Shown: piece by piece, positions 37,567 through 40,373 of the stretch
Layout of the letters: every line of letters starts with the position of its first letter
How positions within the stretch are numbered: the first letter of the stretch is position 1
Origin: a virus
Virus record (IMG/VR): IMGVR_UViG_3300043673_000021
Location: 33,626-97,625 of that record
DNA: 64,000 nt
Strand: one strand, 5' to 3'
Program-made: the position numbers and the translations under genes
The notes under the pieces: generated by a model
Database searches by the model: none
Told to the model about the DNA's origin: nothing
The model's input: the letters and a program-made list of their open reading frames with translations, nothing else

Positions 37567-39165
37567 TCATGCGGCTGCCTCCATGATTCGGCGACCAATC
37601 CAAGCCAGTACAGGAACGGCCATGCTGTTGCCTAGCGCCTTGTACCGGGGACCATCGGCTGCTTCTTTACCCCGAAAGGTAATGTTGGTAAATCCAACCG
37701 GAAACCCCTGCAAAATTTCGCATTCTTCTGGGATTAAACGTCTTACCGCAAACGTCTGGTTTCCCACGCCTTTTTGACTGCATCGCCCGGACTCTTGCTG
37801 CTTGTCCCGAGTGTCCCTCTCTTGAACTGCTGAGCATGCATCTGACAATAGCCATTGGCATGGTGTTTTCTGCCGCACCCCAAAACCGCACACGCCTTGT
37901 TTGGGTTCGATTCCATTTCGGATCGAATCGGAACAAACTGATTGTCCTTGATGAGTAGCGGATCGCCATATTTCTTGTAGCGCTGATAGTGCTTGGCGCA
38001 TAATGAAAATCCCTTCGCTGGCTTCCCACATACCAGACAAAAAGGTTTCTTGCGATGAAGCCGAATATGGCAACTCCGACAGATCCGCTCCAAATTCTCG
38101 GGTGAGTTGTTCTGCCAGTTCTCGTCTTTGTGGTGAACATCCGAAGCCTTCGGTTTGCCACAATGGCAACACGCTCCCTTTGGGCATATCTTCCGTGCGT
38201 GATAATGGGCCGTCTCCCACGATGGGTCCGCTATCACCGGCTTCGCATCGAATGCTTTCGCCATGCAAATCTGATCGCAGTATTTGCGGCGGTTGAAGTG
38301 AATTAAATACTCCAAGTCCCCATTCGGCAAACGCTTCCTCTCCAACTTCTTGGAGCAGAAGGTGCAATATTTTTCCGGTGTGGTTTTCTTGTGTGCTGGC
38401 ATGGCTGATACCATTATACTGCAAGGTATCATTCTCGGCTACATTAAATGCGACGGCGATTTGGCCACCTCCATTCGCGTGGCTCCCGTCGTGGCCCATA
38501 CTGCGCAGCGTCGGCGCAATTTGACCTGCATCAGCGCCGTGATCCTTGCAGGAAAAAGCCACCATGCCGGGGTCTCCATGACGCGTTGTGACTGGAGGGA
38601 AAGTATCCTCGCTGACAGAAAGGTTCGTGTCGCCAGCAGAATTACAGAACCCAATCGCCGGAGGGTGCGCCCCGCTCGCTAACGGATGGCATGGGTCGCC
38701 AGTCTTCGGGTTGCTCCGATTCGCCTTGCTCGTAATTTGCGTTGTGTCAAAGCAAATGGTCGGCACCCCAGCCCCGCCGCCATCCGTGGAGGCGATCGGC
38801 GGCGCAATCTCGTCTGGCGCAAACCCGTCCTGCCCACATGCGCGAAAAGCTACAGCGTGTTGCTTGCCCGATTGCAAGGTAAACATCGGGTCGCCATCCT
38901 GTCCGATACCGATACCAGCCCGCACGTCATCAGTGGACTTACCCGTTCTCGCCCCTGCCTCAAGGATCGGGATGGCTACCGCTATGATCGGAGTTCCTCT
39001 CCCCGTGCCATCCTCTAAGGCATCGAAGCCATCGGCGCGAAGAGAATGGGTAATTGCGGTGGACTCGTACAATGCTCTCGCCTCTGTGCCTAGAGTGGCC
39101 GCTGTTTCTGACTCGCTCCAGTACCCCTGTCCGGTAGCTACGAAAGTTTCCGATTCAGCGTCCAT
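37567..39165 (-). CDS. C5 cytosine methyltransferase, C-terminal part (modular variable region plus motifs IX and X)
   Basis: RRLIPEECEILQGFP and RYKALGNSMAVPV; about seven short modules upstream. Confidence 0.85.
   Translation of the reverse strand: MDAESETFVATGQGYWSESETAATLGTEARALYESTAITHSLRADGFDALEDGTGRGTPIIAVAIPILEAGARTGKSTDDVRAGIGIGQDGDPMFTLQSGKQHAVAFRACGQDGFAPDEIAPPIASTDGGGAGVPTICFDTTQITSKANRSNPKTGDPCHPLASGAHPPAIGFCNSAGDTNLSVSEDTFPPVTTRHGDPGMVAFSCKDHGADAGQIAPTLRSMGHDGSHANGGGQIAVAFNVAENDTLQYNGISHASTQENHTGKILHLLLQEVGEEAFAEWGLGVFNSLQPPQILRSDLHGESIRCEAGDSGPIVGDGPLSRTEDMPKGSVLPLWQTEGFGCSPQRRELAEQLTREFGADLSELPYSASSQETFLSGMWEASEGIFIMRQALSALQEIWRSATHQGQSVCSDSIRNGIEPKQGVCGFGVRQKTPCQWLLSDACSAVQERDTRDKQQESGRCSQKGVGNQTFAVRRLIPEECEILQGFPVGFTNITFRGKEAADGPRYKALGNSMAVPVLAWIGRRIMEAAA
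37743..38402 (-). CDS. HNH endonuclease overprinted inside the MTase C-terminal ORF
   Basis: CTFC...YCDQIC; CCHCG...DVHHKDENWQNNSPENLERICRSCHIRLH; two C-terminal Cys/His fingers. Confidence 0.85.
   Translation of the reverse strand: MPAHKKTTPEKYCTFCSKKLERKRLPNGDLEYLIHFNRRKYCDQICMAKAFDAKPVIADPSWETAHYHARKICPKGACCHCGKPKASDVHHKDENWQNNSPENLERICRSCHIRLHRKKPFCLVCGKPAKGFSLCAKHYQRYKKYGDPLLIKDNQFVPIRSEMESNPNKACAVLGCGRKHHANGYCQMHAQQFKRGTLGTSSKSPGDAVKKAWETRRLR
38406..38431 (-). promoter_or_regulatory. TATAAT box enclosed in the inverted repeat TGATACC/GGTATCA just upstream of the nested HNH
   Basis: TATAAT at 38418-38413 on the minus strand; arms at 38406-38412 and 38425-38431. Confidence 0.5.
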
Positions 39166-39514
39166 ACGTTTCTGCCCCCCCCGCGTTAAGGCACATAGAA
39201 ATCTCGGGAACTCCGCTCATGCTTGCCTCTGATTCGATCAAGCCAAGCGTTACAAGCCTGTGGCAATTGGGGCACAGAACCATAACATTGCTAGGGTGAT
39301 AACCAGCTACTGGATTATGCCGATGGCGATCGCAGGGTGCCTTGTCCCATCCGCAGAGTTCACATTGAGAGTTGTCGATGATGCGCCTATTGCTTGGCTC
39401 ATCCCGTCGATGGCATCCATGGCAAAGGCGGTCATATCGCGGATCTCCGTTTGGAGTTCTCCCCTTATTTCTCGCTAGATTTTCGCAGCCTTCGGTTTCG
39501 CAGATCGGCCTCAT
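39155..39514 (-). CDS. HNH endonuclease splitting the MTase
   Basis: CELCG...DRHRH...NVMVLCPNCHR; tail (EISMCLNAGG) looks like MTase variable-region sequence. Confidence 0.8.
   Translation of the reverse strand: MRPICETEGCENLARNKGRTPNGDPRYDRLCHGCHRRDEPSNRRIIDNSQCELCGWDKAPCDRHRHNPVAGYHPSNVMVLCPNCHRLVTLGLIESEASMSGVPEISMCLNAGGAETYGR
39175..39182 (-). repeat. G8 homopolymer at a frame break in the MTase variable region
   Basis: Removing one G gives CLNAGGQKRMDAESETFV, continuous with ORF 37567..39165. Confidence 0.8.
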
Positions 39515-39566
39515 TTACCCTCCAACACAAAATATCCATGCGCCTCATCGACACTTCCGCGCGCCG

Positions 39567-40373
39567 TCAACGCTGGCACGGTATGACTTTCCCCTCGTTC
39601 ACAAACTGATTCCCAACCGTTTTGCTGTCCCGAGCACATAGAGAGCCTACTGTCTGTCTGTCTGTCTGTCTGTCTGTCTGTCTGTCTACGAATTCGCGAC
39701 CGACTCCAGAGCCAACCTCAGTTGCTTTGGCAATTCTTTTCCGCGCTTCTCTGCGCGTCGGAGGATGCCGGCGCAAGCTCGCGGACTCAAGAAGTATTTC
39801 TCCGGGATCGGGCCCGCCCACAGGACATCCGACAACGAACACACGTTCGCGTCGTTGGGCCACGCCGAAATATTGGGCGTCGAGAAGTCTCCACGCGAGG
39901 CGGCGCTTGGGTCCATCAACCATACCCGCGTCGGTCCAGCGCTGTCCTCTTGCTGGAACGAGTGCGGAGTCCGCTCCCGCCAGCGCTCCCAGAAAGCACC
40001 CGAAGGCATTATCTGAGGTGGAGAGCACTCCAGGTACGTTCTCCCAAACAATTCCTCCAGGGTTAATTGCATCGCAGATCCTCACGAAAGTTAGACATAA
40101 ATTAGAACGGTCATCATCGAGAGAGCCACGAAGACCAGCCACGGAAAACCCTTGGCATGGCGTTCCTGCCATCAGCCAATCGATCTTTCCGAATACCAGG
40201 GCCCGAGATATAAAATCGGATGCTGTTATGTCCCCCAAGTTAGGGACATCGGGTCGGTGGTGCGACAGCACGGCGACTGGAAACTTCTCAATTTCCGCGC
40301 ACCACTTCCACTCGATATCCGGCATCGCGGTTTCAGGAGCGCCAATCCCAGAACACACCGTTGCGCCGGTCAC
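39567..40373 (-). CDS. C5 cytosine methyltransferase, N-terminal catalytic part (motifs I-VIII)
   Basis: CSGIGA, AEIE, GDI, GTPCQGFS, WENVPG, QRRERVF; GTG 40373 overlaps the upstream stop. Confidence 0.92.
   Translation of the reverse strand: MTGATVCSGIGAPETAMPDIEWKWCAEIEKFPVAVLSHHRPDVPNLGDITASDFISRALVFGKIDWLMAGTPCQGFSVAGLRGSLDDDRSNLCLTFVRICDAINPGGIVWENVPGVLSTSDNAFGCFLGALAGADSALVPARGQRWTDAGMVDGPKRRLAWRLLDAQYFGVAQRRERVFVVGCPVGGPDPGEILLESASLRRHPPTRREARKRIAKATEVGSGVGREFVDRQTDRQTDRQTVGSLCARDSKTVGNQFVNEGKVIPCQR
39651..39686 (-). repeat. Tetranucleotide microsatellite (GACA)9 in the MTase coding sequence
   Basis: (TGTC)9 on the plus strand; encodes DRQTDRQTDRQT. Confidence 0.96.
39686..40072 (-). 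CDS. Overprinted MTase beta-type subunit (M.EcoHK31I-like arrangement)
   Basis: Alternative frame within the MTase; GAGG RBS; CSLSDVL...KYFLSPRACAGILRRAEKRGKELP..L..AL. Confidence 0.75.
   Translation of the reverse strand: MQLTLEELFGRTYLECSPPQIMPSGAFWERWRERTPHSFQQEDSAGPTRVWLMDPSAASRGDFSTPNISAWPNDANVCSLSDVLWAGPIPEKYFLSPRACAGILRRAEKRGKELPKQLRLALESVANS

Follow-up and report, generated by a model that had tools for sequence, protein, structure and literature searches.

Organization of the methyltransferase locus

The window analysed here is a stretch of 64,000 nucleotides (nt) from the linear IMG/VR virus record IMGVR_UViG_3300043673_000021, a soil metagenome assembly of 97.6 kb that is about 80% complete. 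Translation of the open reading frames (ORFs) and profile searches revealed, at 37567-40373 on the minus strand, a single C5 methyltransferase (MTase) that is split into alpha, beta, HNH-1, gamma and HNH-2 and sits within a long minus-strand operon. Judged from these frames and alignments, it is one gene read in two frames and broken up further by two HNH homing-endonuclease genes, with slippage tracts at its module junctions. We consider that the locus encodes a fragmented, colonised and probably switchable multi-chain phage C5 MTase, and we put the probability of this reading at roughly 0.6. The features are as follows, with lengths in amino acids (aa) for the chains:

alpha: ORF 40421-39567, minus strand, likely start GTG at 40373, 268 aa, matching PF00145 and TIGR00675
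beta: 40072-39686, minus strand, 128 aa in the +1 frame of alpha, with GAGGA 6 nt ahead of its ATG
(AGAC)9.5 tract, a (GACA)n repeat: 39687-39650, minus strand, 38 nt, Tandem Repeats Finder score 76 with 100% matches
module-2 alternative tail: 39639-39511, minus strand, a 42-aa ORF (..VPALTARGS..) whose TGA overlaps the ATG of HNH-1
HNH-1: 39514-39155, minus strand, 119 aa, matching phrog_2255 (E 1e-4)
G8 tract: 39182-39175, minus strand, between ..CLNAGG and QKRMDAESETF
gamma: 39165-37567, minus strand, 532 aa, matching PF00145 (E 1.8e-6)
insertion of the ShiLan type (a hidden HNH insertion in a phage methylase): approximate limits 38451-37777, minus strand, both frames open
HNH-2: 38402-37743 (ORF open from 38432), minus strand, in the +1 frame of gamma, matching phrog_1271 (E 3e-16)

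A sequence-only reading of this DNA had already spread the pieces of one C5 MTase over these 2.8 kb, and every piece that it reported was found on the minus strand. Motifs I-VIII, which it placed in 40373-39567, lie in alpha, which matches PF00145 at profile positions 8-164 (E 1.4e-24) and also TIGR00675. The alternative-frame ORF at 40072-39686 is present within alpha in the +1 frame, the HNH gene at 39514-39155 has its match to a PHROG HNH family, and the modules with motifs IX/X that it put in 39165-37567 are borne out by residues 454-528 of gamma, which match PF00145 positions 256-323. The second HNH, read at 38402-37743 in another frame, agrees with a conserved start ATG at 38402, and both the tetranucleotide tract (38 nt, or 9.5 units) and the G8 were located at module junctions. 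In addition to what had been noted, there is a frame break between two recognition modules near 39590, which parts module 1 (..SLCARDSK..VIP, in the alpha frame) from module 2 (..PALTARGS.., in the 42-aa ORF). A programmed -1 frameshift at GGGGAAAG between the two modules was considered and rejected, since the phase of the heptamer is wrong for a passage from the alpha frame (2) to the module-2 frame (1).

The pieces were compared with the intact MTases of Pseudomonas phage D14E (480 aa) and Bcep22 (gp25), and the D14E protein was mapped onto three frames of the locus. Motifs I-VIII and the linker fall in one frame (alpha), the remaining recognition region and motifs IX/X fall in another (gamma), and an insertion of 675 nt lies immediately before motif IX. 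Alpha is 53-54% identical to the D14E and Bcep22 enzymes and holds motifs I, IV (PCQ), VI (ENV) and VIII (QRRER), followed by the linker, (DRQT)3 and one recognition module. Gamma carries recognition modules, a read-through insert of about 200 aa, motif IX (RRLIPEECEILQGFP) and motif X (GNSMAVP), so that the diagnostic motifs of a PF00145 enzyme are divided between the two chains. It aligns with the C-terminal parts of the related proteins P0230, P0249, P0227 and P0219 (blastp map), and tandem module-like repeats are visible in the sequence between motifs VIII and IX. The GTG start of alpha overlaps an upstream TGA (GTGA, 40370-40373) and the stop of gamma overlaps the ATG of the following gene (ATGA, 37567-37570); therefore, the broken MTase is part of a translationally coupled operon.

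Breaks of this kind might come from errors of assembly or sequencing, in which case the true tract lengths would join the frames and the real gene would be less broken. This is a metagenome assembly, homopolymers and repeats of 38 nt are error-prone, and an assembly at k=31 was unable to cross the repeat. However, independent contigs (Logan) of the probable source run reproduced 37400-39642 and 39695-40500 at about 23x with 0 differences, including G8. The sequence-only reading had named assembly errors as a possible refutation; the contigs speak against them at G8 and at both flanks and end at the 38-nt repeat. Moreover, the break between modules 1 and 2 and the insertion of HNH-1 lie away from the repeats, and the beta ORF is closed by a TAG that precedes the tract's variable part. 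We regard assembly error as a quite improbable explanation.

Beta as an overlapping gene

Stop codons were counted over 37 related loci (29 of them non-identical, with one gene of the canonical type included as a control), and the expectation was taken from synonymous shuffles. From motif IV to motif VIII the +1 frame showed 13 stops against 84.9 expected, and in the next 50 codons 6 against 31.7 over all loci; all 6 belonged to the canonical-type control and none to the phage type. The +2 frame and the gene flanks had stop counts as expected. Codon variability peaks at position 3 of alpha as far as motif VIII and, for about 50 codons thereafter, at position 1 of alpha, which is position 3 of beta. 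The amino-acid entropy after motif VIII is 1.06 in beta and 1.96 in alpha. By this codon pattern, purifying selection shifts into the +1 frame just past motif VIII, and beta is a genuine overlapping gene whose final 50 residues are the part under selection.

These C-terminal 50 residues (LSDVL..IPEKYFLS..ACAGILRRAEKRGKELP) are conserved, and in a prediction of beta alone they were the sole region with confident helices. A tblastn search with the 128-aa query matched 159 phage records, in each case beneath MTase genes, and the ORF is conserved over a very wide range of phages. The match lay in the +1 frame in all four records checked (a mycobacteriophage, a Streptococcus phage, P1 dmt and a Roseobacter phage), where it was open for 135-165 codons, and the match coordinates in D14E likewise put beta in the +1 frame. 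The closest relatives, P0002-P0004, have 79-83% identity in beta, and P1 Dmt and the MTases of D3112-like Pseudomonas phages are members of the family. As many as 808 short called proteins are beta homologues that bear no family name; beta itself matched no family among the Pfam and NCBIfam profiles, even at E 10.

The conserved residues of beta are similar to the stretch found after motif VIII in single-chain enzymes, and 164 longer proteins carry beta sequence in frame with PF00145. Eight of the nine long proteins that were inspected consist of beta, recognition modules and motifs IX/X and lack motifs I-VIII; the ninth, P0288, is a fusion of frame 0 to the +1 frame and lacks motif VIII. It follows from these long beta proteins that the family has two layouts: either beta continues as the C-terminal subunit, or the alpha frame continues and beta ends after the conserved segment. 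At the junction after motif VIII, it is the second layout that the window shows. The possibility that beta is simply a frameshifted canonical gene was rejected, as LSDVL is found over motif VIII itself and not some 24 residues beyond it. The multi-subunit nature proposed from the sequence alone is supported by this comparison, with beta selected family-wide, chains of beta, modules and motifs IX/X in relatives, and a gene that is split by HNH-1.

Several relatives showed further peculiarities. The dmt gene of Escherichia phage P1 isolate OP279344.1 (L006:614-3655) encodes a Dmt of 1014 aa with an insertion of about 380 aa inside the PCQ motif (..GGTPC|FTAGH...VVHN|CQAFS..), which from its sequence looks like an intein; the +1-frame beta ORF lies downstream of it. 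In Mycobacterium phage Dove (L004), genes 107-109 are annotated as an MTase in two parts (249 aa and 116 aa) and, after these, an HNH gene; gene 107 holds a +1-frame beta ORF of 159 codons. At L023:2283-5993 there is a single ORF of 1237 aa, in which extra MTase-like sequence (DPPY/SPPY, by eye) is apparently fused to a C-terminal C5 MTase, and the C5 part contains a beta-like +1-frame ORF of 116 codons.

The two HNH endonuclease genes

The core of HNH-1 is 48% identical (E 1e-10) to an HNH inserted in a related MTase (L021). At its C-terminal end, the HNH-1 ORF consists of MTase sequence for ~20 residues (..ISMCLNAGG), which align to residues 193-212 of P0230 and directly precede the start of the gamma alignment. 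Therefore, HNH-1 is an insertion in the recognition region that became fused to downstream host codons; by this alignment it is a free-standing endonuclease gene that splits the recognition region. At L021:2-499 and L024:237-836, motif I of a related MTase is followed directly by an HNH gene. A duplicate of motif I (..VCSGIGGAELAL..) opens the HNH ORF, and the MTase then begins anew with a motif I of its own. As read from these sequences, this is a third HNH insertion site in the MTase family.

The insertion before motif IX has no counterpart in D14E (tblastn map) and P0227 (blastp map). Within it, HNH-2 encodes a zinc-finger HNH endonuclease that is 51% identical to an out-of-frame ORF in the MTase of Staphylococcus phage CUB-EPI_14, whose guanine-plus-cytosine (GC) content is 33%. 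The CUB-EPI_14 cassette occupies the same MTase position, and its HNH frame is 51% identical to the window as against 30% for the MTase frame. The same cassette is found at the same MTase site in L016 and in L046-L048, the HNH frame being 57% identical in the latter, and in all five copies the insertion site is just before motif IX. Over the 229 codons of HNH-2 the MTase frame has 0 stops against 11.4 expected, and none of 500 synonymous shuffles reached 0. Five diverged copies each have 0 MTase-frame stops against 5-11 expected, again with 0 of 500 shuffles matching per copy. Constraint is stronger in the HNH frame, which has the classical codon signature, than in the MTase frame; the MTase-frame reading of the insert is present in at least 98 PF00145 proteins.

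Arsenault, Gosselin and Gogarten (PMC11855218) reported in 2025 that mycobacteriophage methylases contain hidden HNH insertions. The conserved site together with the absence in close homologues, the open host frame and the zinc-finger HNH in the other frame were all found here, and by these features HNH-2 is a ShiLan-type out-of-frame insertion through which the MTase frame continues to read. A match to phage ShiLan was not among the tblastn matches listed. A group I intron around HNH-1 or HNH-2 was not indicated either: a search of 37000-41000 against Rfam gave no family at E up to 1, and intein motifs were assessed by eye alone.

Slippage tracts in the window

The (AGAC)9.5 tract is the sole microsatellite within the 64-kb window, and it is a long, perfect, frame-setting repeat inside the gene, as in MTases whose phase is varied by simple sequence repeats (SSRs). 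It opens with the AG of TAG, the stop codon of beta, and in the alpha frame it reads (DRQT)3. Alleles of different lengths were simulated. As assembled, alpha ends with module 1; with one unit more or two units fewer, alpha ends with module 2 and stops on the start codon of HNH-1; with one unit fewer or two units more, alpha is cut short.

At the second tract, G8 puts gamma out of the HNH-1 frame, and simulated G7 or G10 alleles join the two and restore ..CLNAGGQKRMDAESETF. The contiguous form across this junction is present in P0230 and P0249.

These simulated products also allow a reading in which the tracts serve HNH-1 and not the MTase. One additional unit ends alpha on the HNH-1 ATG (ATGA), an overlap of TGA and ATG that is seen in the sequence, so translational coupling would switch the expression of HNH-1, and G7 would give an HNH-MTase fusion. 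On the other hand, (GACA)n is also present at this junction in lineages without an HNH gene at that place, and we hold this explanation to be highly improbable.

Tracts in other phage methyltransferases

A scan of IMG/VR for (GACA)8 returned at least 116 loci, and the composition-matched control repeat (GCAA)8 returned 48. A C5 MTase was present at 45 of the at least 116 (GACA)8 loci listed, compared with 5 of the 48 control loci. In about 36 of the 45 MTase loci listed (the table was read by eye) the tract is on the coding strand, typically 153 nt past motif VIII and directly after the LxDxLE..EKYY segment, which is also where the tract of the window lies. In phage MTases, (GACA)n occupies this junction in at least three other lineages. 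Codons read by eye showed that (GACA)n contains no stop codon in any frame.

The largest lineage comprises 29 loci of low GC content with MTases of the canonical single-frame type and tracts of 8-18 units. After the tract, two overlapping frames both resemble recognition modules and the third frame stops immediately; in 11 loci alpha continues into the first of these frames, in 6 it continues into the second, and in another 11 it runs into the stop. A length difference of 2-3 units was seen even in pairs whose 250-nt flanks are 100% identical. At its second junction (RIYDVGG|CSPTL) there is a poly-G of 5-9, with an in-frame length of 7. This poly-G of a gut-type phage MTase was observed in L062, L164, L141 and about 13 more IMG/VR loci, mostly from sample 3300045988, as a second variable tract at ~280-450 nt after (GACA)n. 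Both L136 (44% GC) and L148 (40% GC) combine, as the window does, a beta ORF with (GACA)n, which in these two lies about 40 nt after the beta stop. In the control scan, a (GCAA)16 tract was found at L166:4489-4552, within an ORF of 391 aa that has a C5-MTase profile match (E 2e-28); therefore, other tetranucleotide tracts also occur in phage MTase genes.

The earlier proposal of a repeat-switchable MTase is partly sustained, by comparison, through the shared junction, the variation in length, the occurrence of all frame states and the poly-G in other lineages; in the window phage itself the switch is putative. Among the homologous loci, the (GACA)n junction recurs in other lineages, and the locus L019 (64% identical) has no tract. 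Taken together, the sequence comparisons suggest that the tracts probably act as switches.

Functional or decaying gene

The beta ORF, the inner HNH and the (GACA)n layers are beyond chance. The locus might nevertheless be a decaying pseudogene, in which the insertion of HNH-1 and frameshifts inactivated the MTase, the open frames are recent leftovers and the repeats reflect neutral slippage. There are two frame breaks in addition to the HNH-1 split; L019, the nearest relative compared at the DNA level, lacks motifs IX/X; and in the repeat-bearing lineage the frame states amount to about one third each, with a single chain in 0 of 29 loci. The authors who described the ShiLan insertions also regard such methylases as dispensable (PMC11855218). 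However, every catalytic motif of the window MTase is intact, the 532 codons of gamma are free of stops, even over the 229 that are overlapped and in which 11 stops are expected, alpha and gamma are start/stop-coupled to the neighbour genes, and the modules of gamma are shared, in conserved form, with P0230 and P0249. That a perfect repeat of 38 nt comes back at one and the same junction in independent lineages of 40-56% GC is not expected from neutral decay. We therefore judge decay unlikely, though it deserves to be weighed seriously.

Several observations weigh against a functional, switchable multi-chain enzyme. In the best-sampled lineage, a single ORF spanning motifs I to IX is absent from all 29 loci, and the three frame states are about equally common, as neutral drift in a dispensable region would also give. 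In the window, the break between module 1 and module 2 lies away from any tract, and therefore no single tract setting gives alpha both modules. L019 is decayed-looking as well as tractless, and the k=31 assembly, which ends at the 38-nt repeat, is therefore silent on the length heterogeneity of the tract.

Structure predictions add to these reservations. Gamma predicted alone had a mean pLDDT (predicted local distance difference test) of 46, with confidence limited to the motif IX-X region (84-93) and a short helix in the insert, and Foldseek found no PDB match to the beta model with an E-value below 3.8. The complex of alpha (from L013) and beta residues 85-163 was predicted with an ipSAE of 0.60 against 0.00 for the best control, with at least 33% of contacts shared among runs and a partner pLDDT of at least 62. 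Among the reference cases, 58 of 80 solved complexes and 2 of 110 mismatched pairs attained the pass mark; only 7 of the 80 solved complexes, and both of the mismatched pairs that passed, had a score no higher than 0.60. The verdict of the tool was "weak support"; the prediction itself speaks for binding of alpha by beta, and its weakness counts among the reservations.

Comparison with known systems

In bacteria, phase-variable MTases include Type III mod genes with tetranucleotide tracts and Type I hsdS genes truncated by SSRs. The window resembles them in that a simple repeat within the gene sets the frame and hence the form of the enzyme. It differs in being an orphan C5 MTase of a phage, with the tract between the catalytic part and the modules, and this tract chooses between two overlapping downstream frames or a stop instead of a plain ON/OFF. 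M.SPRI and M.Phi3TI are multispecific MTases of Bacillus phages and, compared by pattern, they share the tandem short recognition-type modules (x-T/S-L-x-A-R..) between motifs VIII and IX; they are single-chain enzymes that have no switches, whereas the window MTase is in pieces with tracts. In phage Aeh1, nrdA is split by mobE, an example of homing-endonuclease "genes in pieces". Here, too, a free-standing endonuclease gene lies between two halves of a host gene. However, the Aeh1 halves can work as separate chains, whereas the window halves are known from sequence, and the HNH-1 ORF has absorbed about 20 host codons.

M.AquI is naturally split in its variable region (PMC3404938). The window break also falls inside the variable region and leaves the halves as separate ORFs, of which the C-terminal one bears the remainder together with motifs IX-X; unlike M.AquI, the window split was made by insertion of an HNH gene, there is a third, overlapped chain, and slippage tracts lie at the breaks. 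M.EcoHK31I is a two-chain C5 MTase whose beta is encoded in another frame inside alpha (PMC2836561, PMC3404938). In the window, too, a second polypeptide under selection is specified by an alternative frame that lies entirely within the catalytic gene. The beta of M.EcoHK31I is reported to supply motif IX, whereas in the window motif IX is in gamma, none was found in beta, and beta corresponds to the segment after motif VIII.

The ShiLan domain, a hidden HNH insertion in actinophage methylases (PMC11855218; PMC9957025), shares with the window an insertion of ~200 aa in a phage methylase with no stop in the host frame, a zinc-finger HNH in the other frame and a patchy distribution. The ShiLan domain bears no signature of an intron or intein, and in the window none was seen in the Rfam search or, for inteins, by eye. 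The likeness is one of architecture. The methylase lineage and the hosts are different, with a soil phage of 56% GC, a phage of Staphylococcus and at least 98 MTases of metagenomic or bacterial origin. The claim that this combination is undescribed in a phage therefore holds in part. The out-of-frame HNH was published in 2025 (PMC11855218) and an alternative-frame beta is known from M.EcoHK31I (PMC2836561), whereas no paper on repeat-switched phage C5 MTases was found in the literature, and a 2026 review lists none.

Proposed mechanism and significance

By analogy with M.AquI and M.EcoHK31I, which do so from two chains, the active enzyme would assemble from alpha, beta and gamma. The (AGAC)n tract would serve as a three-position switch, by which alpha would end with module 1, end with module 2 and stop on the HNH-1 start codon, or be cut short. 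The G tract would set gamma free-standing (G8) or fused to HNH-1 (G7/G10), and the fusion would restore the ancestral reading of the junction. Slippage would then leave the phage population mixed for MTase composition and probably also for protected sites.

In a wider sense, several unrelated phage lineages may have separately translated pieces of an orphan C5 MTase with a frame-neutral (GACA)n between the catalytic part and the modules, and a poly-G at the next junction in at least two lineages, so that one genome would yield several enzyme compositions at high frequency as a combinatorial, heritable and reversible bet-hedge against restriction. We offer this generalisation tentatively, with somewhat more doubt than belief. 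As a part of the same tentative proposal, and held with the same reserve, the window phage would have this switch design layered on a two-frame gene and two homing endonucleases.

Phase-variable MTases are textbook bet-hedging devices of host-adapted bacteria. If the proposal is true, a virus-borne re-assortment of recognition modules would mean that phages use this bacterial trick against restriction, and it would explain many of the "broken"-looking phage MTase genes that are annotated as pseudogenes or fragments. Three overlapping or nested coding layers (the beta ORF, the hidden HNH gene and the dual-frame modules after the repeat) coexist in 2.8 kb, and gene callers overlook most of such overlapping coding.

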